From contig BEHR01000014.1 of NCBI GenBank assembly GCA_002898555.1, positions 1,416-65,415 of the forward strand: a DNA stretch of 64,000 nt, read 5' to 3'. Numbering within the stretch: the first letter of the stretch is position 1; every line of letters begins with the position of its first letter. Below, in pieces: positions 2,240 to 63,999 of this stretch. Source of the DNA: a bacterium HR15 (GTDB taxonomy: Bacteria > Armatimonadota > Fimbriimonadia > Fimbriimonadales > GBS-DC). The notes below the pieces were generated by a model that saw only the letters and a program-made list of their open reading frames with translations, had not been told where the DNA came from and made no database searches. The position numbers and the translations under genes are program-made.

Positions 2240-3487
2240 ATGCGACGCGGGAGTGGAGTTATTGGGCTAAGCTTATTGTTCATCTTGCTCTGGGCGCAGA
2301 AGGTCGACTATTCAGGCTATCAAGTGCTGCGTCTGCAGATAGAGAGCTACAAGCAGCTCACGCACCTTGAGGAGCTGGTGCGCGATATCTGGACATGCAA
2401 TCCGCGCGGGCGCACGGTCGATGTGTGTGCTTCGCCGGAGGAGCGCGAGCGGCTGCGCAAGGCGGGCTACCGCTGGGAAGTGCTGATCGACGATGTGGGC
2501 GCGCTTATCCGCCAGCAGCAAGGTGAGTTCCGTCCCCAGGGCGATGATATCTTCTCGCGCTACCTGACCCTGCAGGAGGTCTATGCAGTGATGAGATCCC
2601 TTGCGGAGGCGAACCCGCGCCTGGTGCAGATGCTGCAGGTGGGGCAGTCGATAGAGGGGCGCCCAATCTATGCACTGCGCCTCACGAAGGAGCCGCGCCT
2701 CGCACGGGTCTATCGCAACCGCCCCCAAGTGGTGTTCAACGCCTGCCAGCACGCCCGCGAATGGATTACCGTCGCGGTTGCCCTCTATATAGCCTACGGA
2801 TTGGTCGCGGGCTACGGAACCGATACGCGCATCACCGAACTGCTGCAGCGCACGGAGGTCTACATCGTGCCGGTGGTGAACCCCGATGGTTATGAGTACA
2901 CCTGGACCACCGACCGCCTCTGGCGCAAGAACCGCCGCTATCTGGGCATTATCAATGGGCGCGCGACCTATGGGGTGGATTTGAACCGCAACTGGGGCTA
3001 TGCGTGGGGTGGAGAAGGCGCAAGCACCAATCCACGCTCGGAGACCTATCGCGGCGCGGCGCCCTTCTCGGAGCCAGAGACCTACTTTTTCAGCCGCTGG
3101 ATGACGAGCTTGCCACTGCTACGTGCCTCCATCGATATTCACAGCTATTCACAGTTGATTCTGTGGCCGTGGGGCTATACGAGCCAGCTCGCGCCTCATG
3201 ACCATGTGTTCCGCCGGATTGGACTGGAGATGCAGTCGCTCATCTTCAGCGTGCATGGCATGACCTATGTGGCGGGTCCCATCTATACCACCATCTATCC
3301 TGCCAGCGGGAACGCGACGGATTGGGTGTACGGTGCGCGGGGCGCACTGGCGTTCGCCTTCGAGCTGCGCGACACAGGTCAATATGGCTTTTTGCTACCG
3401 CCCGATCAGATTCGCCCGAACGGCGAGGAGATATTTCCTGCGGTGCTGCGCCTCATCCAGTGGGCATTAGAGCGTCGATGGGATTAG
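2240..3487 (+). CDS. Zinc carboxypeptidase, peptidase family M14
   Basis: ORF track 2198-3487 starts at TTG. ATG 2240 lies 6 nt after TATAAT 2228-2233 and gives signal-like MRRGSGVIGLSLLFILLWA. Motifs HAREWIT (HxxE Zn site), NPDGYEYT, GVDLNRNW, HSYSQLILWPWGY, AFAFELRD. Confidence 0.9.
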   Translation: MRRGSGVIGLSLLFILLWAQKVDYSGYQVLRLQIESYKQLTHLEELVRDIWTCNPRGRTVDVCASPEERERLRKAGYRWEVLIDDVGALIRQQQGEFRPQGDDIFSRYLTLQEVYAVMRSLAEANPRLVQMLQVGQSIEGRPIYALRLTKEPRLARVYRNRPQVVFNACQHAREWITVAVALYIAYGLVAGYGTDTRITELLQRTEVYIVPVVNPDGYEYTWTTDRLWRKNRRYLGIINGRATYGVDLNRNWGYAWGGEGASTNPRSETYRGAAPFSEPETYFFSRWMTSLPLLRASIDIHSYSQLILWPWGYTSQLAPHDHVFRRIGLEMQSLIFSVHGMTYVAGPIYTTIYPASGNATDWVYGARGALAFAFELRDTGQYGFLLPPDQIRPNGEEIFPAVLRLIQWALERRWD

Positions 3488-15379: not shown

Positions 15380-18300
15380 ATGGCACGGACGCTGACACAG
15401 ATACGGATACATGGCTTCAAGACCTTCGCTCAGCGGGTGGAGATCGAGCTGACGCACGATCTCGTCGCGGTGGTCGGTCCCAACGGATGTGGCAAAAGCA
15501 ACCTCGTCGACGCCATCGTCTGGGCGTTAGGGGAGGTCAGCGTACGCGCGCTGCGTGCCACCACGCCGACCGAAGTGCTTTTTAGTGGCTCCGCCACCGA
15601 GAAACCGCTTGGCATGGCGGAAGTCACGCTTTGGTTCGATAATGAATCACGCTGGCTGCCGCTGGACACCAACGAGGTACAGATCACGCGCCGCCTCTAT
15701 CGCTCCGGCGAATGGGAGTGCTGGATTAACCGCACTCCTGCGCGCCTACGGGATGTGGCCGATCTGTTCGCAGGCACGGGGCTGGGGCGCGGTGGCTATG
15801 CGATTGTGGGGCAAGGTGAAATCGAAGCCTTCCTCAGTGCAGATCCCGAAGAGCGACGCCGCTGGCTCGAAGAATTGGCTGGCATCGCCTTCTACCGCAA
15901 CCGCCGACGCGACACCTTGCGCGATCTGGAAGCGACTCGACTCCATCTCCAGCGCATCGAAGATGTGCTGCGCGAACTCATTCGGCAGCGTGAACCCCTG
16001 CGAGAACAAGCCGAACGCGCTCTTGCCTATCGCGAACTGCAGCAACAGCTGCACGCGATGGAGCGACAACTGTTGCTCCACGATTTCGCCCAGCTCAGCC
16101 ATCAGCTCAGCATCGTGCATCAAGAGCGTGCCCACCTGCGCCAAGCCATAGAAGAGGGGCGCGGGGCAATGCAAGCGGCGGAAATGCAAGCCGAGACGCA
16201 TGGCAAAGTCGTCGCCCACCTCGATGCCGAGATGGACACCTTGCGCACCATCTTGCAGAGCCAGCTGAGTGCCGAGCAGCGATTGCAGGGCGACCTGAAA
16301 GCCCTCAGCGAGCGTGAACGCACCTTGCAGGAACTCGCCCAAGCCCTTCACGAAGAGGCGGGCACACTCCAGGAGCAGGAAGCACGCCACAGCCGTACGG
16401 TCCACCTGTTGCAAGCGCGCCTGCAGACCGCCCGCGCCGCGTTGCAACAACTCCTGCCCCGTTTGCAAGCCGCCCGCGAAACCCTTCAGCAACACGAACA
16501 GGCACGCCAGGAGGTCGATGCCCGCTATCACGCCGCGCTACACGCCTACGCTCAGCGTGAACAACAAGAGCGTGAACGACTCGCCTTGCAGTCCCGCCTA
16601 CAGGAGCTGGACGAGCTGGAACCGACTATCCGCGCACGCCTGCAACAGACAGAGGCAGCCCTTCTCGCTGCCCAAAAACAAGAGCAACAGCTCCATCGCG
16701 AACTGGAAACCGCTCAGGCGGAATCCGACAGGTTGGACAAACAGCTCACTGCGCATCAGGCACAGACGGCCACACGCCAGTCGCTGCTGGCAAAACTCAC
16801 CGCGCAGGTGCAGGCGTTAGAGGCAAGTTTACAAGCGGGCGAAGGGGCGTCTCCTGCGGTGCGTCGCCTGCTGCAAGCGATCCAACGGGGTGAGCTGCAG
16901 GGCGAATTCTATCCCGTCGGGGCCATCCTCACCATACCACCTGAACTACAGCTTGCCATCGAAGCCGCGCTGGGCAGCAGCGTCAACGACATCATCACGC
17001 CCACCGAAGCCGAAGCACGCGCTGCCATCGAGTGGCTCAAACGCAACCAAGCAGGACGGCTCACCTTCCTGCCACTGGATATCCTCACGCCTGCTCCTGC
17101 GCCGCGACTCGCTCCACAACAAGCGAACGGCATTCTGGGTCTTGCTGCCGAATTGGTGCGATATGACCCCCGCTTCGAACGCGCGGTGCAGCACCTGCTG
17201 GGGCGCACCGTCGTCATCGACACCCTCGAGAACGCTATCCAGTGGCGAATGGCGAATGGAGGGCGAGAGCGCATGGTCACCTTAGAGGGTGAGCTAATCC
17301 AGCCAAGCGGCGCCATCACAGGCGGCAGGCAGGGCACAGAACGCAGGGGCTTGCTCGCGCTCAAACGCCAACTGGATGACGCCCGCCTTGCCCTCCAGCA
17401 GGTGCAGCAACAGGTGCAAACGGACGAAACCGCGCTGCAGTCCCTGCGCCAGCGACGCGAAACCGCCAAAACGCGAATCGAAGCCTTGCAAAGCGAGCTG
17501 CACGAAGCGATGCAGCAACGCCTGCTCGCCGAAACCGAGCATTCAAGGGTCGAACAGGCTCTGGCACAGCTGCTTCACGAGCGCAAGAGCCTGACCGAGC
17601 AGCTCGCCCAACTGGACATCCAGCTCGCCCAACAGCCTCTACCCGACCTCACTGCCCTGCAAGCCGAGCGCGACCAGATTCAGCATGCGTACGCCGAATC
17701 GGTGCAAGCCCTCGCTACCCTGCAAGCCGAACAGGAACGGCTCCAGCGTGAAATCGAGGAGACAACCGCCCGCCTGCAAAGTGAGCAGCAGCAACTCCAG
17801 CAAGTGCAACAGCGACTGCACCACCGCCACGAGCGTATGCAAGCGATCCAGCGCGAATATGACCAGATTCAGACCAGACGGGCACAGCTCCAGCAGGAGC
17901 GTGAAACACTGCTTGCCCAAATCGAGCATGCCCAGGCGCGTTTGGAGCAGCTGCGTGCCGAACGCCAGCAACAACTGACACAAAGCCTGCAATGGAGCGA
18001 GCAGGCGCGTCAGCTGCGTCAGCAGCTACAGCAGATGAACGAGCGCGACCGTGCCCTCGAACTACAAAGCGCGCGTATCGAAGTGCGCCTCGCGGAGCTA
18101 AGTGAGCAGTGGCAACGCCTCTTCCCTGACGAGCCGAAACTGGAGGGCAAGCTATCAATAGGCAATCCTCCATCCCGTAGCGCTGTCGAAAAAGTGCGCC
18201 GCGCCCTGCAAGCGATGGGTGAGGTCAACCTCGGCGCCGCGGAAGAATATGCCCGCCTGACTGAGCGCATCGACACACTGACCCAGCAGCGCGATGACCT

Positions 18301-18925
18301 GCTCAAAACCTGTGAGCAACTGGAGCACGCCCTGCACGAGATCGACATGCATGCCCGCCAGCGGTTTGAGGAAACTTTTGAAGCGGTGCGCGTCGCCTTC
18401 AACGAACGGTTCCAGCAGCTGTTCGAAGGCGGGCATGCCGACCTGATTTTGACCCAGCCACGCGACCCGCTTAGCGCAGGTGTGCTGATTGAAGCACAGC
18501 CGCCCGGCAAACGACGCCAGCGATTGGAGCTGCTCTCCGGTGGCGAGCGTGCGTTGACCGCCACTGCCCTGCTACTCGCCTTTATGCAGGTAAAGCCCAG
18601 CCCCCTCTGCGTGCTGGACGAGGTGGACGCCGCGCTCGACGGGCGCAATGTACAGCGATTTGCCGATCATCTGAAACAGATGGCACAAAACACGCAGGTG
18701 CTGATCGTCACCCACAACCCCATTACCACCGCGGTGGCGGGGCAGTGGATTGGCGTCTCGATGACGGGTGGTGTCTCACGTATCGTGCCCTATGTCCCGC
18801 GCCTTTCCGATTCGGAGACCGATGGGCTGGATGTGCGTCGTGCCGCGATCCACCTCCAGAGCCAGCCAACGCCCGCGCCCACGACCCAACCCATCACCCA
18901 GCCGCCAACCACATCGGATGGATAA
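15380..18925 (+). CDS. smc: Chromosome segregation protein SMC
   Basis: Walker A GPNGCGKSNLVDAI, long Q/E/L/R coiled coils, hinge region, signature LSGGERALTATALLLAF, Walker B CVLDEVDAALD; 1181 aa. Confidence 0.95.
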   Translation: MARTLTQIRIHGFKTFAQRVEIELTHDLVAVVGPNGCGKSNLVDAIVWALGEVSVRALRATTPTEVLFSGSATEKPLGMAEVTLWFDNESRWLPLDTNEVQITRRLYRSGEWECWINRTPARLRDVADLFAGTGLGRGGYAIVGQGEIEAFLSADPEERRRWLEELAGIAFYRNRRRDTLRDLEATRLHLQRIEDVLRELIRQREPLREQAERALAYRELQQQLHAMERQLLLHDFAQLSHQLSIVHQERAHLRQAIEEGRGAMQAAEMQAETHGKVVAHLDAEMDTLRTILQSQLSAEQRLQGDLKALSERERTLQELAQALHEEAGTLQEQEARHSRTVHLLQARLQTARAALQQLLPRLQAARETLQQHEQARQEVDARYHAALHAYAQREQQERERLALQSRLQELDELEPTIRARLQQTEAALLAAQKQEQQLHRELETAQAESDRLDKQLTAHQAQTATRQSLLAKLTAQVQALEASLQAGEGASPAVRRLLQAIQRGELQGEFYPVGAILTIPPELQLAIEAALGSSVNDIITPTEAEARAAIEWLKRNQAGRLTFLPLDILTPAPAPRLAPQQANGILGLAAELVRYDPRFERAVQHLLGRTVVIDTLENAIQWRMANGGRERMVTLEGELIQPSGAITGGRQGTERRGLLALKRQLDDARLALQQVQQQVQTDETALQSLRQRRETAKTRIEALQSELHEAMQQRLLAETEHSRVEQALAQLLHERKSLTEQLAQLDIQLAQQPLPDLTALQAERDQIQHAYAESVQALATLQAEQERLQREIEETTARLQSEQQQLQQVQQRLHHRHERMQAIQREYDQIQTRRAQLQQERETLLAQIEHAQARLEQLRAERQQQLTQSLQWSEQARQLRQQLQQMNERDRALELQSARIEVRLAELSEQWQRLFPDEPKLEGKLSIGNPPSRSAVEKVRRALQAMGEVNLGAAEEYARLTERIDTLTQQRDDLLKTCEQLEHALHEIDMHARQRFEETFEAVRVAFNERFQQLFEGGHADLILTQPRDPLSAGVLIEAQPPGKRRQRLELLSGGERALTATALLLAFMQVKPSPLCVLDEVDAALDGRNVQRFADHLKQMAQNTQVLIVTHNPITTAVAGQWIGVSMTGGVSRIVPYVPRLSDSETDGLDVRRAAIHLQSQPTPAPTTQPITQPPTTSDG

Positions 18926-54832: not shown

Positions 54833-54892
54833 CGCCAGTCCACACCTGTCTTGATCGGGGTAGACCCGCAGGCATGCCCCCACCACCTTGCG

Positions 54893-54898
54893 ATTATA
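54893..54898 (-). promoter_or_regulatory. -10 box TATAAT for trpD
   Basis: Minus strand GGAGGTATAATCGCAAGGTGG. Shares GAGGTATAATCG with the two island promoters. Confidence 0.45.
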
Positions 54899-54899
54899 C

Positions 54900-54929
54900 C
54901 TCCAGCACACGCAGGGCGGTTAGCCGCAG
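54900..54929 (-). repeat. Left copy of the island-flanking direct repeat (remnant of a glmM-like 3' end)
   Basis: On the minus strand CTGCGGCTAACCGCCCTGCGTGTGCTGGAGGTATAA reads LRLTALRVLEV-stop in the glmM frame, versus LLLTALRTLEN-stop at the real glmM end. Its TAA lies inside the trpD TATAAT box. The res stop codon lies inside this repeat. Confidence 0.6.
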
Positions 54930-57925
54930 CCGTTCTGCGACATGGGCGCAGCATTGTCATCGCGGCGGTTCACCGATGCGTGTACACGCTTCACAAGCTG
55001 TTCCAACTTGTCGAACCAGTAAAACCGCTCATCTTCAGGCAGTTGATTGCGGTCACTTGTATAAAATAATAACATTATACGAGCTGTAAATTTATCATGC
55101 TGAAAAGCTATAGGTTGATTGTTCGAATCCTCGAACAAACGGCGATAACCCTCCAGTTTCCGCAGCCAATCAGTGTGTTCTGTGCCTTTTGGATCTACAA
55201 AAACTATCCAGTACTTGTCGCCTTTGCAAAGCCAGAAAATGAAGTCAGGCTTGAACCTGGCGGTTCGGTTGGTTTTGGGATCGTAGTAGGGGATATAGAC
55301 CTCGTCCAGGCTCTCGTCCAGTTTGCTGAAAAACCACCAATCGAACTCCCCGAACCGGTTGCCAGATTGGTCGAGATGCCGTTCTAAATCGTTGACAAAT
55401 CTCACCTCGCTGGGCGTCCTGATGATGTGGCGGATGTAGTCCACCCGTTCATCCTCGCTGAGAACGACAGGCAGATAATAGTGCTGGGCAATATGTTTGA
55501 TGACGATTCGCTTTCCATCATGGAAGAATTCTCCTGAGGGACCGACTTCCCGAGCTTTCGCTTCATACTCCTCAGGGGGAACCTTCCCATACAGTTCTCG
55601 CAACTCCCTAACCCTATCAGGATAGCGCCTTACCGCTTCAGCTCTATTCTGTAATCCGCTGATATCCTTCAGCGTCACCGTGATATGGCGGAAGTGGCGA
55701 ATCTCATCTTCCAATTTCTTCAGTCCGTCCACCTCTTCCGGCACCATATTCATATAGTCCAGCACCCGCCCGAGGAGCCGTCGCATATCCCCATACCGCC
55801 GCCCGTTGAAGCGGTAGAAATCGTCAGGTTGATCCAGGCTGCGACGCAGGAGCCGCAGGAGCCTGGGGTCCTTCTCCGTCAATGCCAGGAGCACACGGTC
55901 ATCCGTCGCACTGACAAACCGCTCCAAGACCTCAAACTCCTCCCGGTCAATCTCAAATTTGGCGATGGGACGGAGTTCTGCCATCGGTTGGGAGGACTGC
56001 CGGTAGACCGGGATAAGGAGTGTCTGATTTTCTGCTTCGGGATTGACCTCAAAAATGGTCAGTTGCTTCTCGCTGGGGCGAGTCTGTTCCTGCTTCAGGT
56101 CACAAATCACCTTTTGCAGCGCCTGGCGGTTCGTCCCGAAGACGAAAAGCGTCTCCAGGGGTTGAATGCTGTCCTTCAGCTTATCAAAGAGCGACCTGTC
56201 CACTTCTCCCGCGTTGCAGAGCGGAAGGAGGCGCTTGCGCTTGTTCTTCACCGGCTCGATGCGCACGCCGCGCCCGACCGATTGGAGGATGAACTTCCGC
56301 GCATCCTCGCCCACGCCGATGTTGATGTAGCAGATTACATTCGGACGATTGGAATCCCAGCCCTCGTAGAAGGTGCGCGAACCCATGAGGATGGTGATGT
56401 CCGAATCCTCTGCGTTCAGCCGGGCAAAGTAGCTTTCATCCTCAAACCGCTCGGCGATCTCGTAGCCTGTAAGTTTCTCCTTGAGCCAGCTGGAGATGTC
56501 GCCGATTTTGATGAGTGCAAAGGGACGGTCGACCGTCTTGAGTTTGAAAGCCAGCTCCTTGCGGTCGGAAGGACGAATCAGGACTTCAATCTCTCCTGGC
56601 GCTGTGGCGTTGAAGACGAAGCGGAGTAAATCGCTCGGCTGAAGGGTATCCCACACATTTCGCAGAAGCACCGCGTTTTCCTCTTCAAACATGAAGGCGG
56701 GGCTCTGCTTTAACTCCTGCTCCAACTCATCCTTTGCGGACTTCCAGAGGTCGCTGCCAACTCCCCCACGGGCGATGCGTTCCAACTGCTCGAAAAAGAG
56801 CTTCAAATCGGCCTCCTCGGTGTTGACGGAGTTCACCAGAACCAGCATCAACGGGCGATGGTAACCCCCCGTGGACCGAACCAGCTCGTAGGCTTTATGG
56901 GCATACACCAGCATCATTAGCGCCTTGAGGACGATCTTTTGCTTTTCCTCATCTTTGTAGTCCTCCTTATCCCGAAATGCCCGCATCTCCTGCTGCAAAA
57001 TAACGATGTGTTTGCCGTAGCCTGCCCGGATGTATTCGGACAGGTTGAAGTTGAAGACGGTGGTGGCGATATCCCGTGGGTCGGTAAAAGTGGCGGAGAA
57101 GTTGAACAGGAAGCCGTTGCGAGAAAGAATACTGTAAATGTGCTGGCGTTTGGAGTCCTCCCTGTCGCCTTTGTGCGCCTCGTCCAGCAGCACATACCAG
57201 CGCCCATCGTTGTCGTAATTGCGGAAGTTCACAATACGCTCTTTCTGCTCATCGCTCAGGTTGTCGGAACGGTAGTAGAAAACCGTCACCTCCTGTTCTT
57301 GGTAAAGGGAAGGCGTATTCCGCTTGACAGCTGCATAGTCCCGCAGTTCTCGAAGGACAATGCGGAAGTCGCTGCGAGCACGGTTGAACTCCTCCACATG
57401 CCTGTTGAGTTGCTCTATCAGATCGTCGCGGTGGGTGAGGAAAAGAATCCCGCAGGGCGGGATCTCGCCTCGTTGGATCAGGCGAGCCAGCACTTCGATC
57501 AGTTTCACGATGACCAGCGTCTTGCCGCTCCCTGTCGCCATCCAGAACGCCATGCGGTTGATGAAGTGCTCGTAGGGAAGCTTGCTCCCATTGGCTTCGT
57601 AATGCTCCTTAAGAAGCGAGGCAATACGATGGTTCAGAGAAGAAAGGGCAAGGTCGTAGTTCTCCTGTAGCCCGTTATCCTGATACCATTTCCAGAGCTT
57701 CTCTTTGCGCTTGGCGTTGACCTCGTTCGCTTCGCCTGGCTGGTAATCGCCGAAGTCCTCGTAATACTTCCACAGCGCTTTCAGCGCGTTGCGGAGCGCA
57801 CTCTGCTGGTAGTCCCACAGAGTCTTCTCCTTCGAGAACGAAGCAAGGTCGAAGTCAGCCCAGTTCGCGGGCAAATTTTCATCAGGAATGACTTCCACCA
57901 TGTGTTGCAGGTAGATGCGTGCCAT
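54920..57925 (-). CDS. res: Type III restriction enzyme Res subunit (SF2 helicase + C-terminal PD-(D/E)xK nuclease)
   Basis: Walker A MATGSGKT, DEAH-like LLDEAHKG, QSVGRGVR. C-terminal FKPDFIF...IVFVDPKG nuclease-like motif; 1001 aa. Confidence 0.85.
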   Translation of the reverse strand: MARIYLQHMVEVIPDENLPANWADFDLASFSKEKTLWDYQQSALRNALKALWKYYEDFGDYQPGEANEVNAKRKEKLWKWYQDNGLQENYDLALSSLNHRIASLLKEHYEANGSKLPYEHFINRMAFWMATGSGKTLVIVKLIEVLARLIQRGEIPPCGILFLTHRDDLIEQLNRHVEEFNRARSDFRIVLRELRDYAAVKRNTPSLYQEQEVTVFYYRSDNLSDEQKERIVNFRNYDNDGRWYVLLDEAHKGDREDSKRQHIYSILSRNGFLFNFSATFTDPRDIATTVFNFNLSEYIRAGYGKHIVILQQEMRAFRDKEDYKDEEKQKIVLKALMMLVYAHKAYELVRSTGGYHRPLMLVLVNSVNTEEADLKLFFEQLERIARGGVGSDLWKSAKDELEQELKQSPAFMFEEENAVLLRNVWDTLQPSDLLRFVFNATAPGEIEVLIRPSDRKELAFKLKTVDRPFALIKIGDISSWLKEKLTGYEIAERFEDESYFARLNAEDSDITILMGSRTFYEGWDSNRPNVICYINIGVGEDARKFILQSVGRGVRIEPVKNKRKRLLPLCNAGEVDRSLFDKLKDSIQPLETLFVFGTNRQALQKVICDLKQEQTRPSEKQLTIFEVNPEAENQTLLIPVYRQSSQPMAELRPIAKFEIDREEFEVLERFVSATDDRVLLALTEKDPRLLRLLRRSLDQPDDFYRFNGRRYGDMRRLLGRVLDYMNMVPEEVDGLKKLEDEIRHFRHITVTLKDISGLQNRAEAVRRYPDRVRELRELYGKVPPEEYEAKAREVGPSGEFFHDGKRIVIKHIAQHYYLPVVLSEDERVDYIRHIIRTPSEVRFVNDLERHLDQSGNRFGEFDWWFFSKLDESLDEVYIPYYDPKTNRTARFKPDFIFWLCKGDKYWIVFVDPKGTEHTDWLRKLEGYRRLFEDSNNQPIAFQHDKFTARIMLLFYTSDRNQLPEDERFYWFDKLEQLVKRVHASVNRRDDNAAPMSQNGCG

Positions 57926-57931
57926 ATTCTC

Positions 57932-58342
57932 TCACCCGTTTGGAGCGAATCCCTTTTCCTTGAGCCTGGTCAACACGAACGCTTTGGTCTTTTCCGCCAG
58001 TTCTATGGCTTCACGGGTCTCCTCCAGGCTGGGGGTATAAAACTCCTCACCATACCGCAAGGTTGTCGCATAGCGACTGAGGCGGTCTACTTCCCAGTCC
58101 ATTAGCGTTTGAAATTCCGGGTCAATTTGAGAACAGAGGCCTACAAGCACGGCGATCCGATGTGTTTTGGGGTACTCCTTGCCGTGGAAAATCAGGAACG
58201 CCTTCAGGTACTTCTCCACGCACTGCTGCATATGGAAACATACCATATCCGTCACGGGATCCCCGACAGACATCTCATCTTTCCCGATCTTCAGGTCATT
58301 TTCCGCCTTACGGATCCAGTTGCGCACGGTTTCCTCATTCAT
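57932..58342 (-). CDS. HEPN-domain protein (HEPN1)
   Basis: 136 aa; IRKAENDL, CFHMQQCVEKYLKAFLIFHG, KTHRIAVL, LSRYATTLRYG. 4-nt ATGA overlap with the upstream MNT gene. Paralogue of 61775-62188. Confidence 0.75.
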   Translation of the reverse strand: MNEETVRNWIRKAENDLKIGKDEMSVGDPVTDMVCFHMQQCVEKYLKAFLIFHGKEYPKTHRIAVLVGLCSQIDPEFQTLMDWEVDRLSRYATTLRYGEEFYTPSLEETREAIELAEKTKAFVLTRLKEKGFAPNG

Positions 58343-58692
58343 ATCGGCACTCCCTCCTTCAGGGCATAGTAGGTGAGGCGACCCGTGTCGGTTTTCCGCT
58401 CTTCCACGGTTTTCTCGGATTGCACAAAGACATCGGCGAAGATCCCCTCCTGAGCCAGCCGCCAGCAGATGCGGGAAGCGAGGTCTTCTCGTTCGTGGAA
58501 GGACGCTTCTCTGTCCACCACCACGAAGAGATCCCAGTCGCTATCCGGGCGCGCCTCACCTCGGGCTCGGCTCCCAAAGAGCAGGATGCGCCGCACCCGG
58601 TAGCCCGCTCGCTCTACCTCCTCCGTGATAATAACCTTCGCGTGTGCAAGCAGGATATCGTTGAGCAAAACCCGAATGTCCCGCTTAGACAT
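58339..58692 (-). CDS. Minimal nucleotidyltransferase (MNT1), partner of HEPN1
   Basis: LLFGSRARGEARPDSDWDLFVV (GSx3Gx5SDxD pol-beta NTase motif); 117 aa. Confidence 0.8.
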   Translation of the reverse strand: MSKRDIRVLLNDILLAHAKVIITEEVERAGYRVRRILLFGSRARGEARPDSDWDLFVVVDREASFHEREDLASRICWRLAQEGIFADVFVQSEKTVEERKTDTGRLTYYALKEGVPI

Positions 58693-58981
58693 AGGTCAAC
58701 TCCTTCTCGATGGCTTGCCAGAGGAGAGGCTTTCTTAGGAGGGCTCCCTTGGTGACAAGGTCCACTCGCATGCCCAGAATCTCCTCCAAATAGCACCGAA
58801 GGTCCACCACCTCCCAGCCCACGGGTCGGTCAAACTCCACCATAATGTCCACATCGCTCTCTGCACCTTGCTCGCCCCGAACGCAGGAGCCGAAGAGGGC
58901 AAGGCTTTTCACATGGAACTGCTTTCGCAACTCCTCTTTATGTTCTTTGAGCCGTTCTTTGATTTCTGTGAGCGTTTTCAT
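58685..58981 (-). CDS. MntA-like minimal nucleotidyltransferase (COG1669-type) without a cognate HepT/DUF86 partner
   Basis: SLALFGSCVRGEQGAESDVDIMVEF ... RVDLVTKGALLRKPLLWQAIEKELTYV. ATG 58981 is 5 nt after the mod stop (TTG 58996 would overlap it). Confidence 0.8.
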   Translation of the reverse strand: MKTLTEIKERLKEHKEELRKQFHVKSLALFGSCVRGEQGAESDVDIMVEFDRPVGWEVVDLRCYLEEILGMRVDLVTKGALLRKPLLWQAIEKELTYV

Positions 58982-58986
58982 GATGT

Positions 58987-61662
58987 TCACCACCAAATCA
59001 GGGGTTTAATGAGCCGCCAGTCGGGGTTCTTCAAGTCGGCGGTCGTGCCGTCGGCGAACTCCACCGTGCCGGGTCGGGTGGGGTCTTCAGAATCAGGGAG
59101 GATGCGCTTGATCCATTTGCCCGTCAGGTTGGAAAGCGTCTCCGCCAGATCGATGTCCGGGTAGAGCTCGGAGAGGTCCACGCGGACCACATTATTTTCC
59201 GTGTCCACTTCCACCACCGGCTCGCCCGTCTCGGCGTTGTCCAGCATCTTCGGGTCCCTAAGAAAGATGTAATGGCAGGGATCCTCCGTCTCGGGCGGCG
59301 TGAACAGATCGTCATCCTCGTCATCCAGGTAGCGCGTCCGGCGCAGGGTGTCCTCGTATTGCTCCAGCTCGTAGTATTTCACGAAATGGCTGATGCCCTG
59401 CCCGTCGGGCTGCGCCCTGCCATCTCGCCACTTATCGGAGAAGACCACCTTCTTGATGCGGGGCAGGAGTACCGTGTAGAAGTAGTCCGCCATCTCCACC
59501 AGGATGTATTTCCGCCGTCCGCCGTCCTCTCGGTTCAGGTTAATGACCGCGTGAGCCGTAGTGCCAGAGCCAGCGAAGAAGTCGAGGATTATGCCTTTAC
59601 CCTTGTTGATAATTTCAGAGTGGCGAAGGATTTCTTCCATGAGATGGATTGACTTGGGATACTTAAACTCTTCGGCAAGATGTTTTCCAAGAATGTTCTG
59701 AAGTGCTTTTGTTCCATACTCACTCGCGTCAAATTGACTTCCATACCAAACAGTACGAGCCATTTGAAGATCTTTGGATAGATAAATTTGTATACCTGAT
59801 GCCGTTTTGACTGCTGCCAATCGATCAGCTACTTTTTCAATTGATTGTCTAGCATAGCGCCACTTACGCTCTTTACCTTCGGAGTCAATAGGCCAGACAT
59901 AGATGATTCCATCTATTTCTTCGTTTGCAGCACTCGGGTGGTAATCATCCGGAGGCACCTCTCCAAAACCAATGATTTTGTCGTCTTTTACAAGAATTGG
60001 ATAAAAGCAGTTAGCAGCATCTTTCCTGAAGGATTCAGTTCCAGAGTCACGCAGATTCCTGAAATCAATGTCTTCTCTGGGACGGTCACTAATATACTTT
60101 TCCTCATCATTACGGTAAAGGAAGTAAAGGTACTCATGCACAACTGAAAAATTTTTTCCCTGTTGCCCTCTCTGATTATGAACTACTGTTACAAAGTTTT
60201 TTGACCAGTCATCAAACACCGTGTCCAGCAATTCGCTAAGCTTTGAATTTTCCACATCATCAATTGATATGCTATAAATCGCACGCGGACTCAACCAGTT
60301 TTTGCTTACTACCAAACGGTTTTCTATAAGGGATATCCACGACGCGTGCTTATATCGGTTCAAATAGGCAATCTCACTATATTGGGTATTGTATGGCGGA
60401 TCAATATAGACGAAATCTAACCGCTCCCGAAACTTTGGGAGCATTGTATTCAACGCCTGGTAGTTCTCGCTCTTAATCAGCCAGCCATCCAGAGCCTCGT
60501 CCAGGTTGTCGAAGAGGGCCAGGATCTGGAGTTCGAGGTCCTTGAAGTAGCGGGTGTCAATGGGCAGGAAGCGGTAACGGGGATGGAGATGCTTGCCTTC
60601 TATCAGGTTCGTATCCCAGAGCGCGTCGGCGGTGAAGGATTCATCCACCATGCCCAGCTCCTGCCACTCCTTCACCTGCTCGGCGAAGCCGGGGTGCGCG
60701 ATGAGGCGTTCCAGCAGGGGCACAGCACACTGTGCCCCTACCTCCATAATGCGGTCCAGCGTAATGACATAGCCCGAGCGCAGGATAAACTTCGGCTTGT
60801 TCCAGATGCGCACCAGTTCGTCCTCAAAGGCGGCGATGAAGTCAATCACCCGATAGGCGATGCGCTTGAGGGCCTGGAGTTGCTTGATCCGTTGTTCGGT
60901 CCACTGCGTCTCAGGCTCCTCGCCTGGCTTGCCCAGAAGATACTGCCACAGCCACAGGTCAAACTGCTCCCGCAGAAAAGACCTGGCGTCCTTGCAGAGG
61001 AAGTAGTCCACCTCGCTCTGCCGCTCAAAGAGGCGGAAGGCTTTCTCTAAGGTCTCCTCGGAAGGGACGGCGTCGGTATAATGGGACAAGCCCAGGGAAT
61101 CCCGAATCTTCCGGCGGATCTCGGTGATATTCGTGGCGCGACCGCGCTCGGAGTAGGAAACGGCGAAAACCAGAGCGCCGCCATCCCGCCGCTCCTTGAA
61201 GTCAAAGACCAGCTCCCGCTTCTCGTTGGCTTTCTTGTGCTCCAGGTTGGAGACATCAAAGACGAAGCGGAAGCCGTCCACCTCCACCTGCATTCTGCGG
61301 AAAAGCCGGTCGGTCTTCACATAGTAGAGGCGGGCAGTCTTCCAAAAGAGGATAACATCCTGGTCGTCGGTGTAGACCCGCTCGTAGATGCTCTGGTGGT
61401 AGGGCGTGAAGAAGAAGCCGATGGAGCCGCTCTCGGTGAAGTAGCGCTTGAAGAAGGTGTAGAGCTTGTCAAAGAGCTCCTCGCGGAAGTCGGGAAAGGG
61501 TTGGAGAGCTTCGCCAATCTCCTTTTGCAAACAGGGCTTCATCACTTGCTCGAAGTAGCGGGCTTTGATGCGCATGAGGTTGATGTAGCCCGATTTGCCT
61601 TCCACAGGTACGCCGACAAACAGGTTCCCCAGCACCTGGTAGAAGCGGTGCTCCTTTGTCAT
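58987..61662 (-). CDS. mod: Type III R-M DNA methyltransferase Mod (beta-class N6-adenine/N4-cytosine MTase) with ~420-aa N-terminal region
   Basis: Motif IV VYIDPPYNT (60391-60402 = DPPY), motif I DFFAGSGTTAHAV (about 59560-59583), order IV-TRD-I. ATG 61662 is 7 nt after TATAAT. ORF-track start 61941 would overlap HEPN2. Confidence 0.85.
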   Translation of the reverse strand: MTKEHRFYQVLGNLFVGVPVEGKSGYINLMRIKARYFEQVMKPCLQKEIGEALQPFPDFREELFDKLYTFFKRYFTESGSIGFFFTPYHQSIYERVYTDDQDVILFWKTARLYYVKTDRLFRRMQVEVDGFRFVFDVSNLEHKKANEKRELVFDFKERRDGGALVFAVSYSERGRATNITEIRRKIRDSLGLSHYTDAVPSEETLEKAFRLFERQSEVDYFLCKDARSFLREQFDLWLWQYLLGKPGEEPETQWTEQRIKQLQALKRIAYRVIDFIAAFEDELVRIWNKPKFILRSGYVITLDRIMEVGAQCAVPLLERLIAHPGFAEQVKEWQELGMVDESFTADALWDTNLIEGKHLHPRYRFLPIDTRYFKDLELQILALFDNLDEALDGWLIKSENYQALNTMLPKFRERLDFVYIDPPYNTQYSEIAYLNRYKHASWISLIENRLVVSKNWLSPRAIYSISIDDVENSKLSELLDTVFDDWSKNFVTVVHNQRGQQGKNFSVVHEYLYFLYRNDEEKYISDRPREDIDFRNLRDSGTESFRKDAANCFYPILVKDDKIIGFGEVPPDDYHPSAANEEIDGIIYVWPIDSEGKERKWRYARQSIEKVADRLAAVKTASGIQIYLSKDLQMARTVWYGSQFDASEYGTKALQNILGKHLAEEFKYPKSIHLMEEILRHSEIINKGKGIILDFFAGSGTTAHAVINLNREDGGRRKYILVEMADYFYTVLLPRIKKVVFSDKWRDGRAQPDGQGISHFVKYYELEQYEDTLRRTRYLDDEDDDLFTPPETEDPCHYIFLRDPKMLDNAETGEPVVEVDTENNVVRVDLSELYPDIDLAETLSNLTGKWIKRILPDSEDPTRPGTVEFADGTTADLKNPDWRLIKPLIWW

Positions 61663-61667
61663 GGTTA

Positions 61668-61709
61668 CGATTATACCTCGCGTGGGTGCGAAACTTCGCC
61701 ACCTTGACC
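61668..61709 (-). repeat. 42-nt perfect repeat, copy 1 (promoter of mod)
   Basis: Minus strand GGTCAAGGTGGCGAAGTTTCGCACCCACGCGAGGTATAATCG; identical to 62577-62618. Confidence 0.95.
61670..61675 (-). promoter_or_regulatory. -10 box TATAAT, 7 nt before mod ATG (leaderless-type)
   Basis: Minus strand GAGGTATAATCGTAACCATG. Confidence 0.55.
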
Positions 61710-61774
61710 GTTGCTTGCAGATTCCTCCTGACCCCCCTTCTACAGAAATCCCGTGTTCCACTATATGTTCCGCA

Positions 61775-62188
61775 TCATTCCTGTTCCAATACCATGCCTG
61801 CTTGAACCAATCTTTGTCGCACAAGCGACCGTGTTCGCTCAGCCAGTTCGATGGCTCTTTGCGTCTCTTTCTGGTCAGGTGTGTAAGGTTCCTCACCGTA
61901 GCGGAAGATAATGGCGTATCTCGTAAGCTCGCGCACCCCACGAGACTTCAATTGACCAAAGGAGGGATCAATCTCTGCACAGAGGTTGACGAGGGCGGGA
62001 ATGTTGTGCGTTCGCGGCTGCTCGCGCCCGTGAAAGATGAGGAATGCCTTCAGGTATTTCTCTACACACTGCTGCATGTGAAAGCAGACAATCCAGGTAA
62101 TAGGATTCTCCGTCTGCATCAGCAGTTTGCCTGCTTGGAGGTCGTCCTCGGCTTTTTGAACCCATAGCCGAACCGCTTCCTCGTTCAA
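61775..62188 (-). CDS. HEPN-domain protein (HEPN2)
   Basis: 137 aa; VQKAEDDL, CFHMQQCVEKYLKAFLIFHG, RTHNIPAL, LTRYAIIFRYG. 4-nt overlap with MNT2. Confidence 0.75.
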   Translation of the reverse strand: MNEEAVRLWVQKAEDDLQAGKLLMQTENPITWIVCFHMQQCVEKYLKAFLIFHGREQPRTHNIPALVNLCAEIDPSFGQLKSRGVRELTRYAIIFRYGEEPYTPDQKETQRAIELAERTRSLVRQRLVQAGMVLEQE

Positions 62189-62571
62189 ATCTCCACCCCC
62201 TCTTTGAACACATAATAGGTCAGGTATCCGGTGTTGCTTGCCCGTCTTGCAGCGGTTTCTTCAGACTGAACAAGCACATCGGCACAAATGCCCTCATCTG
62301 CCAGCCGCTCGCAAATGCGGTCGGCAATCGCCCAGCGGGTCTTCGAAGGCGCGGTGGGGGTGATGAGGATATAAAAGTCCCAGTCGCTGTCGGGTAGGGC
62401 TTCGCGACGAGCGCGACTGCCAAACAGGATCACGCGGCATACTCGGTACCCTGCGTGCTCCACCTCGTCATAGATAATCTGTTTGGCTTTGCGCAGAACT
62501 TCGTTCACTGCTCCACTCCCGGCTCCCCAGCTTCGCTCTCTTCCAAGGCGGGTGCTGCTTGCCTTTGCCAT
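62185..62571 (-). CDS. Minimal nucleotidyltransferase (MNT2), partner of HEPN2
   Basis: ILFGSRARREALPDSDWDFYILI; paralogue of MNT1 (shared AGYRV.R..LFGSRAR, ...YY..KEGV.I). Confidence 0.8.
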   Translation of the reverse strand: MAKASSTRLGRERSWGAGSGAVNEVLRKAKQIIYDEVEHAGYRVCRVILFGSRARREALPDSDWDFYILITPTAPSKTRWAIADRICERLADEGICADVLVQSEETAARRASNTGYLTYYVFKEGVEI

Positions 62572-62576
62572 TAGCG

Positions 62577-62618
62577 CGATTATACCTCGCGTGGGTGCGA
62601 AACTTCGCCACCTTGACC
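62577..62618 (-). repeat. 42-nt perfect repeat, copy 2 (promoter of MNT2-HEPN2)
   Basis: Identical to 61668-61709; ends 5 nt before ATG 62571. Confidence 0.95.
62579..62584 (-). promoter_or_regulatory. -10 box TATAAT, 7 nt before MNT2 ATG (leaderless-type)
   Basis: Minus strand GAGGTATAATCGCGCTAATG. Confidence 0.55.
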
Positions 62619-62640
62619 TTCTTCTGCAGGGGGAGCCGTG

Positions 62641-63999
62641 TTAGTTCTCCAGTGTGCGCAGGGCGGTTAGCAGCAGGTGCAGGCATTCGTCCACCAGCTC
62701 AACGGTTTCGGCTTCCACCATCACGCGAATGGCGCTTTCGGTGCCGGAGGCGCGGATATTGAGCCGTCCTCGTCCGTTGAGCATCATCTGCACCTGTTCC
62801 ATCGCTGCCTGCACCGTTGGATGGTCGCGCCATGCATGCTTATCGCGCACCGCGATGCTCACCAAGCGTTGCGGGAAGGGTTCGAACGGGTGGGCGATTT
62901 CGGAGAAGGGCTGGTCGCTTTGGAGATAGAGGTACAGGGTCTGCAGCATGGTGATCAGTCCGTCGCCTGTGGTGGCGACCTCGCGGAAAATGATATGTCC
63001 CGATTGCTCACCCCCGATTAGGGCATGGTGCTGGCACATCGCCTCGGCAACATATCGGTCGCCCACGCGCGTGCGTATGAGTTGAATGCCTTCTGCTTGC
63101 AGCCTGCGTTCCATGCCGAGGTTGCTCATCTCGGTGGCAACCACGAGAGGTGGGTTCAGCGTGCCTTGTGCGTGTCGCCGGAGCGCCCACAGCGTCATGA
63201 TGCAGTCGCCATCGGCAGGGTCGGCGTTCTCATCACAGAACAGGGCACGGTCCGCATCCCCGTCGAACGCCACGCCCAGCTCCGCGCCCGATTGCAGCAC
63301 CGCTTGCTGCAGGTTCTCCAGATGGGTGGAACCGCAGCCCGCGTTGATGTTGTCGCCATCTGGCTCGCACGCAAAGAGGCTTACGCGGGCGCCCAGTTCG
63401 CTGAGCAAGGCAGGTGCGTAGTGGCTGGCGGCGCCGTTCGCGCAATCGACGGCGATATGGATGCCCTGTAGTGGCTCGCGCTCGCCTGTCCACTCGCGCA
63501 TCAGGTGCAGCAGGTGGAGCAGATACTGCTCGCCTTCCCGCTCGTCATAGCGCCACAGCCCGATAGCCGATGCAGGTGGGTAAGAAAACGGTTCGCAGGT
63601 CTCCTCCAGCAGCGTCTCGATCGTCCGCTCCGCCTCGTCAGGGAACTTGTAGCCGTCGCTGCCGATGAGTTTGATGCCGTTATCTTGTGCGGGGTTGTGC
63701 GAGGCGGACAAAACGATCCCCAGATCGTAGTGCCCTTCACGCACGAGATAGGCAATAGCAGGGGTGGGCAACACCCCGGCGGAGGTCACATGCGCCCCCA
63801 TCGCGCAGAGTCCACTGATGAGCGCGGCTTCGAGCATGGCGCCGCTGCGGCGGGTATCGCGTCCAATCAGGATTCGGGGTGTGGGCGACTGTTCGTGTAG
63901 ATACAGGGCAATTGCGCGTCCCAATCGTAGTGCGAACTCGGGCGTGAGCAGCTCGTTCGCCACACCCCGAATGCCGTCCGTGCCAAAATAGCGTTTCAT
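62641..63999 (-). CDS. glmM: Phosphoglucosamine mutase
   Basis: MKRYFGTDGIRGVANE, phosphoserine loop SASHNPAQDNGIK, 452 aa. ATG at 63999, one base from the window edge. Confidence 0.95.
   Translation of the reverse strand: MKRYFGTDGIRGVANELLTPEFALRLGRAIALYLHEQSPTPRILIGRDTRRSGAMLEAALISGLCAMGAHVTSAGVLPTPAIAYLVREGHYDLGIVLSASHNPAQDNGIKLIGSDGYKFPDEAERTIETLLEETCEPFSYPPASAIGLWRYDEREGEQYLLHLLHLMREWTGEREPLQGIHIAVDCANGAASHYAPALLSELGARVSLFACEPDGDNINAGCGSTHLENLQQAVLQSGAELGVAFDGDADRALFCDENADPADGDCIMTLWALRRHAQGTLNPPLVVATEMSNLGMERRLQAEGIQLIRTRVGDRYVAEAMCQHHALIGGEQSGHIIFREVATTGDGLITMLQTLYLYLQSDQPFSEIAHPFEPFPQRLVSIAVRDKHAWRDHPTVQAAMEQVQMMLNGRGRLNIRASGTESAIRVMVEAETVELVDECLHLLLTALRTLEN
62647..62676 (-). repeat. 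Right copy of the island-flanking direct repeat (functional 3' end of glmM)
   Basis: See left copy; offset 7747 bp. The four consecutive mismatches are CACA vs TGTG (all transitions). Confidence 0.6.

Follow-up and report, generated by a model that had tools for sequence, protein, structure and literature searches.

Why should the methyltransferase gene (mod) and the restriction gene (res) of a restriction-modification (R-M) operon of Type III be separated by three genes for small proteins of the nucleotidyltransferase (NTase) and HEPN families, and why should two more such genes stand 5' of mod? The question is raised by a 7.7-kb block in a 64,000-nucleotide window (the whole stretch of DNA analyzed here) from the hot-spring metagenome bin ‘bacterium HR15’, whose Res protein is NCBI entry HRbin15_01324 (100% identity). 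Seven open reading frames (ORFs), all on the minus strand, lie at the coordinates and with the junctions assigned beforehand by reading the sequence (the initial annotation), and profile searches (Pfam, PADLOC, NCBIfam) agree with the domains claimed for them. The small genes are likely, with appreciable room for doubt, to be autonomous cassettes of toxin-antitoxin (TA) or abortive infection (Abi) type, for which an intact Type III operon provides a translationally coupled slot.

The host enzymes have the features expected of Type III membership. Mod matches N6_N4_Mtase (PF01555, 88.1 bits) and, over residues 2-855, the PADLOC model MTase_III (PDLC03638, 693.6 bits), and its motifs follow the beta-class order (DPPY at residue 421, FAGSG at 696). 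Res matches ResIII (PF04851, 59.9 bits) and the PADLOC model REase_III (111.5 bits); its ResIII/SWI2_SNF2 helicase region carries the superfamily 2 (SF2) motifs GSGKT (132) and DEAH (248), and a C-terminal nuclease motif of the PD-(D/E)xK type, PD...DPK (893-913), lies within a PF27151 YagJ-like domain. These Res motif residues are invariant across a 22-sequence alignment of homologues, and both enzymes look intact from their sequences. The center of mod (approximately island nt 2365-3162, the presumed target-recognition domain) gives no blastn alignment with three related loci (L003, L006 and L092) and the ends are 77-81% identical, a pattern that agrees with the swapping of specificity that Type III Mod proteins typically show.

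Cargo at the mod-res junction

Over 5,600 homologues of Res exist, and the survey took in the 160 relatives of this one family that scored best. They comprise 80 loci from GTDB species representatives (fetched with a profile of 22 Res sequences) and 80 metagenome loci, and in each of them the mod end and the res start were located. Both landmarks were found in 65 GTDB loci, 41 of them with res 0-190 nt after mod and 24 with more than 250 nt between the two, and in 69 metagenome loci, for which the corresponding numbers are 44 and 25. Res thus follows mod within 190 nt (mostly 4-9 nt) in 85 of 134 loci, and the remaining 49 (37%, an approximate figure, as the set holds near-duplicates such as L044/L045, L167/L168 and L158-L161) have an interval of more than 250 nt. 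The inserted ORFs read in the direction of the R-M genes, except a few short ones on the reverse strand, probably spurious. That res comes directly after mod in Type III systems, as the initial annotation supposed in treating this locus as unique, is therefore not a rule in this family: the one Type III feature missing from the window is missing from all 49 of these loci.

At least 12 unrelated types of cargo were identified at the slot by Pfam scans and blastp propagation. Pairs of a minimal nucleotidyltransferase (MNT) and a HEPN protein, of the same subfamily as those in the window, occur in at least seven other loci: L003 (equivalent to L004/L005 and probably L090), L006, L052, L092, L093, L110 and L172, the last traced through HEPN1 homologues and not part of the Res survey fetch. 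The survey of neighborhoods that the initial annotation had called for thus removes any claim that the layout is unique. MntA-HepT cassettes were found in L082, L099, L101 and L109, with HepT truncated in L023 and only the NTase present in L111, and ImmA/IrrE with DUF4411 in L049, L052, L058, L072, L073 and L082; the commonest cargo type is Schlafen AlbA_2 with HATPase_c_4. Further types are Bro-N, RhuM-Fic, PHP with AAA_21 ATPases, DUF6119, an OLD-type AAA_15 plus TOPRIM protein (L139 4965-7004), a trypsin-like protein (L046), a short prokaryotic Argonaute (pAgo; Piwi) with SIR2 (L041 4955-7916), and a minimal cyclic-oligonucleotide-based antiphage signaling system (CBASS; SMODS plus Cap15) in L131 (1755-3247) and on the R. 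marinus plasmid NC_015970.1. Inserts without any Pfam match (L009 6306-7004, L074 6757-7987, L080 7017-7745, L081 7251-7925, L152 3893-6664 and L058 3600-4046) are, by the logic of embedding, candidate defense genes.

The plasmid is RefSeq pRHOM17201 of Rhodothermus marinus SG0.5JP17-172 (L180, NC_015970.1 15684-22819), in which a SMODS CD-NTase and Cap15 lie between mod and res under the annotations ‘nucleotidyltransferase’ and ‘hypothetical protein’ alone. It offers a culturable, fully sequenced example of embedding, and would make a tractable model of the slot.

Cassettes may be stacked, as two or three are in L052 and L082, and on its gene content the window's insert is a stack of the same kind: the slot would hold an orphan NTase, its HepT lost, followed by the complete pair MNT1-HEPN1. 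Occupancy differs among the closest Res relatives, with L003, L006 and L092 filled and L010, L091 and the sister bin HR16 (L007) empty (Res identity to the window is 79% for L001, 70% for L010 and 69% for L091). Remnants in the slot elsewhere include the truncated HepT of L023 and a 404-nt gap without ORFs in L114/L119.

A simple mechanism behind the slot is suggested by the end of mod, which in every locus printed reads ...ATCTGGTGG-TGA/TAA and encodes a conserved ...KPLIWW; this IWW-stop (TGGTGGTGA/TAA; 58987-58995 in the window) is conserved across phyla. The next start codon lies 4-9 nt 3' of the mod stop; in direct loci it is the ATG of res, and in filled loci the first cassette gene takes the position of the res start (TGAAAACTATG in L003, TGAAGCATG in L099, TGAACATCATG in the window). 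The stop region of mod appears to double as the Shine-Dalgarno sequence of the next gene, because the GGTGA it contains is complementary to the 3' end of 16S rRNA. The C-terminus of Mod would then be a built-in ribosome-binding site, so that a gene placed behind it would be both co-transcribed with mod and translationally coupled to it, and the last cassette gene would hand ribosomes on to res through a new Shine-Dalgarno sequence or an overlap.

Insertion into such a translational relay would explain the compactness of the window's junctions. The TGA of mod is followed by ACATC and the NTase start ATG 58981 (a 5-nt gap); NTase and MNT1 overlap by 8 nt (ATGTCTAA), MNT1 and HEPN1 by the 4 nt ATGA, as MNT2 and HEPN2 also do by 4 nt; and HEPN1 ends in TGA, followed by GAGAAT and the ATG of res (a 6-nt gap). 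The three genes thus fill an interval of approximately 1.05 kb, with the order and strand of mod and res kept. No sigma-70-like promoter or convincing terminator was detected between 58996 and 57925; the matches of the scan of the region as a whole do not exceed shuffled expectation, so that it adds nothing to the argument from the junctions. The tight junctions support the single operon, probably with translational coupling, that had been proposed. Two starts had been offered for the NTase; ATG 58981 is favored over TTG 58996 because homologues in L001 and L111 begin with the same ATGAAAACGCT... a few nt past the mod stop.

The small proteins: autonomy and its alternatives

All three NTases match PF01909/PF18765 and the PADLOC candidate PDC-S09, and carry a GSx(9-13)DxD active site in the form GSx11DxD. 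The 98-amino-acid (aa) NTase scores 58.3 bits against PF01909 and 92.7 bits against PDC-S09 over the full model (PDLC04906), and MNT1 and MNT2 score 42.8 and 42.4 bits against PDC-S09; with a match to the hidden Markov model and a location inside or beside a Type III operon, all three qualify as PDC-S09. Their scores against the NCBIfam MntA equivalog NF047752 (43.1 for the NTase, 38.8 for MNT1, 32.9 for MNT2) fall below its cut-off of 60 bits. HepT (PF01934, DUF86) has no match among the seven proteins of the locus, and the overlap of the NTase stop with the MNT1 start leaves no space for it. Since homologous NTases in the same slot of L082, L099, L101 and L109 are followed by a PF01934 HepT, as in truncated form in L023, the 98-aa NTase is probably the orphan antitoxin half of a former MntA-HepT cassette, in line with its earlier description as an MntA-like protein of 98 or 103 aa without its HepT partner. 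It might, speculatively, serve as an anti-addiction or immunity gene.

HEPN1 and HEPN2 are single-domain proteins of 136-137 aa that score 88.4 and 85.5 bits against PF05168 (Pfam gathering cut-off 22). Identities of 58.7% between MNT1 and MNT2 and of 58.6% between HEPN1 and HEPN2 bear out the proposed paralogy; the sequence CFHMQQCVEKYLKAFLIFHG, noted as common to both HEPN proteins, is indeed present in each, but it marks the subfamily as a whole and is not specific to the two. The Rx4-6H RNase motif, which the initial annotation could not see by eye, is absent from any conserved position: HEPN1 contains no R.{4,6}H, and the sole example in HEPN2 (R55...H61) is not conserved, HEPN1 having a lysine there. 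Among 119 members of the subfamily, the invariant polar residues are D16, D32, H37, Q39, Q40, E43, K44, K47, H61, R96, Y97 and E108, so that R96-Y97 with the acidic residues that follow is conserved along with H37 and H61. HEPN1 and HEPN2 are members of HEPN-T, the classical family of MNT-associated HEPN proteins, for which an R-Y-acidic variant without Rx4-6H has been described (PMC3710099, Table 1). By sequence, the nearest solved structures are 1WOL and 1UFB (HEPN) and 1WOT (MNT), all uncharacterized structural-genomics proteins.

In MNT-HEPN dyads HEPN is reported to be the toxin and MNT the antitoxin (PMC3710099), and the order seen here, with MNT 5' of HEPN and ATGA overlaps, has the polarity of a TA pair. 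The HEPN of each pair would accordingly be a toxin that arrests growth, probably as an RNase whose active site is non-canonical, and the upstream MNT would neutralize it by binding and/or nucleotidylation. The pairs may act as autonomous addiction modules that stabilize the island, possibly with a second-line role in abortive defense, and would be neither subunits nor regulators of the restriction enzyme.

Autonomy is suggested by what has become of related pairs. In L172 (3130-8423) an MNT and a HEPN 84% and 76% identical to MNT1 and HEPN1 lie intact between mod and res, although the R-M genes themselves have decayed: residues 216-644, and with them the catalytic motif, are absent from mod, and res has broken into two ORFs, ResIII and YagJ. 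Stand-alone MNT-HEPN pairs lie beside housekeeping genes in L174 and L179, and in L175-L177 (4618-6269; Aminicenantes) two tandem pairs and a third NTase adjoin an HsdM_N/N6_Mtase/Eco57I-type methyltransferase. A pair in L178 (4681-5405; Fimbriimonadales GCA_026003075.1) stands alone, with no mod or res, upstream of corA-pfkB-GFO-pyr_redox; its flank is shared at 88.8% nucleotide identity with L001, which has mod-NTase-MNT-res at this site.

L001, a contig of Logan accession ERR15113703 that holds the closest Res relative, encodes an NTase and an MNT1 94% and 97% identical to those of the window. At 1796-1823, HEPN1 codons 6-136 have been lost by an in-frame deletion that fuses the first five codons to res. 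Such an asymmetry, with the HEPN gone and both NTases retained, would be expected were HEPN the toxic member of the pair. The contig begins within mod, for which reason a truncated mod was rejected, and the mod frame shifts once near nt 150-210, which marks either a pseudogene or an assembly error.

The window's two pairs are, by their sequence relationships, separate acquisitions from one subfamily, because each has closer relatives elsewhere than in the window: the nearest homologues in other genomes are 76-78% identical to HEPN1 and 74-75% to HEPN2 (P0202, 74.6%). A local tandem duplication was rejected as their origin on the same grounds (74-78% to relatives in other genomes, approximately 58.6% to each other).

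Several observations weigh against autonomous TA cassettes. The near-duplicates in the survey blur the frequency with which the slot is filled; no PADLOC model matches HEPN1 or HEPN2; and RNase activity of the HEPN proteins is uncertain, because the canonical Rx4-6H is absent. Among the closest relatives of Res, several (L003, L006, L092 and L093, 73-63% identity) also keep an MNT-HEPN pair, which could mean a functional partnership with this R-M clade.

A partnership of this sort would take its most definite form in a guardian of the PrrC kind, in which Mod and Res together with MNT hold the HEPN proteins inactive and free them as RNases, as an abortive second line, when a phage inhibits or overwhelms restriction. 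Such a role has a precedent in prrC, which lies inside the Type Ic EcoprrI locus, and the same logic has been proposed for R-M-linked HEPN proteins in general (PMC3710099); the layout is one of tight co-expression, MNT-HEPN pairs persist with several of the closest relatives of Res, and the CBASS, pAgo-SIR2 and OLD genes of the same slot suggest layered immunity. We nevertheless consider it improbable, if the best placed of the alternatives, since the cassette carries its own neutralizer in MNT, the subfamily is found alone and outlives decay or absence of mod and res (L172, L174, L178, L179), 63% of the family has nothing inserted, and cargo of at least 12 unrelated types is accepted at the slot. 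The HEPN proteins also differ from PrrC and RloC, in which an ABC-ATPase is fused to a C-terminal HEPN with Rx4-6H, in having no ATPase or sensor domain.

A bolder version would make the mod-res junction a dedicated, translationally hard-wired acceptor site for defense cassettes, comparable to an integron, the embedded modules, from MNT-HEPN in the window to CBASS, pAgo-SIR2 and OLD in other loci, guardians subordinate to the restriction enzyme that fire on inhibition of Mod or Res, the PF05168 HEPN an R-M-gated effector, and the three NTases and two HEPN proteins a cross-neutralizing network. If this were true, the IWW-stop/GGTGA element would guarantee the expression of any insert; we hold it to be a long shot, on a par with the guardian role.

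A slightly smaller likelihood attaches to inert passengers, that is, selfish or degenerating insertions at a permissive site with no function beyond sparing res expression. Decay in the slot is evident from the orphan NTase, from the remnants in L023 and L114/L119, and from the loss of HEPN1 in L001. Against this, MNT1, HEPN1, MNT2 and HEPN2 are full length and keep all the residues invariant in the subfamily and the NTase motifs, and their Shine-Dalgarno sequences and start/stop overlaps have been kept; to their counterparts in L001 the NTase and MNT1 show 94-97% identity, compared with 79% for Res, which argues for constraint or recent exchange. Autonomous cassettes of TA or Abi type in a coupled slot remain the reading that we favor.

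A probable island between glmM and trpD

Judged from its composition and boundaries, the block was probably acquired horizontally and inserted between glmM and trpD (Table 1). Its genes have 52-59% GC (0.59-0.71 at third codon positions, GC3) compared with 62-65% (GC3 0.74-0.76) for glmM and trpD, and the 7.7 kb are bracketed by a repeat: the last 30 nt of glmM (62676-62647) recur with 25 of 30 positions identical at 54929-54900, a spacing of 7747. The sequence GAGGTATAATCG occurs three times, before MNT2 (62578-62589), before mod (61669-61680) and before trpD. No recombinase gene is in sight. Neither Rfam (E up to 0.1) nor a tRNA scan matched anything in the island or its flanks, and hence no tRNA-type attachment site or regulatory RNA was detected. 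A search for an empty-site allele found none, as both Logan contigs with an identical GlmM end 52 nt past glmM, inside the 42-nt repeat described below.

Table 1. Features of the island and its boundaries, in window coordinates.
Feature	Coordinates	Strand	Description
res	54920-57925	minus	1001 aa; Type III restriction subunit
HEPN1	57932-58342	minus	PF05168 HEPN protein, putative toxin
MNT1	58339-58692	minus	minimal nucleotidyltransferase, putative antitoxin of HEPN1; PF01909/PF18765, GSRARGEARPDSDWD motif
MntA-like NTase	58685-58981 (ATG) or to 58996 (TTG)	minus	98 or 103 aa
mod	58987-61662	minus	891 aa from ATG; Type III DNA methyltransferase
Promoter-like repeat, copy 2	61653-61720	minus	TATAAT 61675-61670, 7 nt, then mod ATG 61662
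HEPN2	61775-62188	minus	PF05168 HEPN protein, putative toxin; TTG start, 4-nt overlap with MNT2 stop
MNT2	62185-62571	minus	minimal nucleotidyltransferase, putative antitoxin; PF18765/PF01909, PDC-S09, GSx11DxD
Promoter-like repeat, copy 1	62562-62629	minus	TATAAT 62584-62579, 7 nt, then ATG 62571
glmM 3' end (last 10 codons)	62647-62676	minus	upstream copy of 30-nt imperfect direct repeat
Downstream island boundary	54890-54929	minus	glmM-tail-like 30-mer over res stop, then GGTATAATCG, 5' of trpD

A second direct repeat, of 68 nt and 84% identity, has one copy before MNT2 and another before mod, with a spacing of 909 nt, and so flanks MNT2-HEPN2; its identical core of 42 nt gave two matches in the sequence and none in 100 shuffles. 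Each copy contains TATAAT, 7 nt and an ATG, the geometry of a leaderless mRNA behind a predicted promoter, and extends into the first three or four codons (ATGGCAAAGG and ATGACAAAGG). Two copies flanking the pair are what would be expected had it been inserted behind a duplicated mod promoter, and MNT2-HEPN2, although of the same subfamily as MNT1-HEPN1, would be a separate acquisition that came to sit there, ahead of mod. Recombination between the copies would excise MNT2-HEPN2 precisely. The start of MNT2 itself may be GTG 62508, which has GGAG 5' of it and would give a protein of 107 aa, as in most homologues. The repeat also contains a small inverted repeat (GCGAA-GT-TTCGC), rejected as an autoregulatory operator because its arms are just 5+5 bp and MNT and HEPN have no DNA-binding domain.

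That the NTases and HEPN proteins tune R-M, by delaying or attenuating res translation in a new host or by covalently modifying Mod or Res, is the least probable of the alternatives and very doubtful. In its favor, approximately 1.05 kb between mod and res must presumably alter how much Res is made relative to Mod, and when; MNT2-HEPN2 and mod stand under the same promoter block; and all three NTases keep a catalytic GSx(9-13)DxD. Against it, most homologous systems, including the close L010 (70%) and L091 (69%), have res right after mod, the cargo of the slot is heterogeneous in function, none of the small proteins has a DNA-binding domain and the inverted repeat is too short for significance. 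The control of Mod and Res by NTases suggested in the initial annotation finds no support, most family members working without an insert, and neither does the supposed uniqueness of the locus; its gene identities, operon layout, paralogy, orphan NTase and absent RNase motif stand.

Elsewhere in the window, approximately 1.8 kb at positions 1-1800 have 41-51% GC (58% for the window as a whole), and contain no ORF of at least 110 aa, no Rfam match at gathering score and no tandem repeats. A strong AT-skew anomaly at 16-18 kb is explained by an SMC protein of 1181 aa (15380-18925), whose coiled coil is rich in Q/E/A/R.

Comparison with known systems

The locus shares with canonical Type III systems (EcoP1I, EcoP15I; variants in PMC8259958) the position of mod upstream of res on one strand, an N6_N4 methyltransferase with DPPY, and an SF2 helicase with a C-terminal PD-(D/E)xK nuclease. 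It departs from them in that mod and res are adjacent there, whereas three genes intervene here and two more lie 5' of mod; among Type III variants, the sole extra gene reported is an ATPase 5' of mod (PMC8259958).

HEPN-superfamily toxins within R-M operons have a known example in prrC, which, as is predicted for the window's HEPN genes, is co-expressed from inside its host locus, the Type Ic EcoprrI hsd operon. PrrC is an ABC-ATPase-HEPN fusion with Rx4-6H that is silenced by the R-M complex, whereas the window has small PF05168 HEPN proteins with an MNT of their own, no ATPase and a Type III host. Type VII HepT-MntA systems (e.g. Shewanella SO_3166/SO_3165; the HEPN-MNT system of Songailiene et al. 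2020, cited in PMC12988326) resemble the pairs in having an NTase followed by a HEPN, a stop/start overlap and GSx(9-13)DxD, and in sister loci HepT is partnered by NTases of the class to which the 98-aa protein belongs. Unlike them, the window has no PF01934 protein, its HEPN proteins belong to PF05168 and have no Rx4-6H, and its NTases lie below the MntA cut-off. The classical MNT-HEPN dyads of thermophiles (HEPN-T, PMC3710099; 1UFB TT1696, 1WOL, 1WOT) have the same Pfam families and gene order, a C-terminal ...RY... in place of Rx4-6H and a conserved histidine elsewhere; the solved proteins show little sequence similarity to those of the window (E 1e-5 to 1e-3), and the position between mod and res of a Type III system is not described there.

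The initial annotation knew of no system of this architecture. The embedding of extra genes in defense operons has, however, been published, the hosts being Hma, BREX, DISARM and Type I R-M, and 96.7% of the embedded genes lying on the same strand (bioRxiv 10.1101/2024.01.29.577857), and clustering of PF05168 HEPN genes with R-M operons was listed in 2013 (PMC3710099, Table 1). That ‘guilt-by-embedding’ study yielded PDC-S09, an NTase candidate of putative antiphage activity, and also, according to PMC12988326, the NTase plus HEPN candidate PDC-M05, which the window matches only through weak hits to PDC-M05A (E 2e-5 to 7e-3). In a literature search of incomplete coverage, no paper was found that specifically describes genes located between mod and res of a Type III system. 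The cassettes are nested, co-oriented, recurrent and varied in cargo, as are the embedded genes of Payne et al. 2024, with which they share same-strand nesting, diverse known or candidate defense or TA cargo and matches to PDC-S09; they differ in that the host is Type III and the slot is a single junction, from the mod stop to the res start.

The window's locus is thus no new kind of system, the principle of embedding being already known, and the family-wide survey of the junction is a more useful product than the single locus. For MNT-HEPN pairs it supplies natural experiments, in the form of a HEPN-only deletion, cassettes that have outlived their R-M host and an orphan antitoxin, and in the stop region of mod it points to a ribosome-binding site that may be what makes the slot possible. 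It also brings Type III R-M within the reach of ‘guilt by embedding’, since a junction filled in approximately one third of the loci of a very large Res family provides a place to mine for new defense genes.

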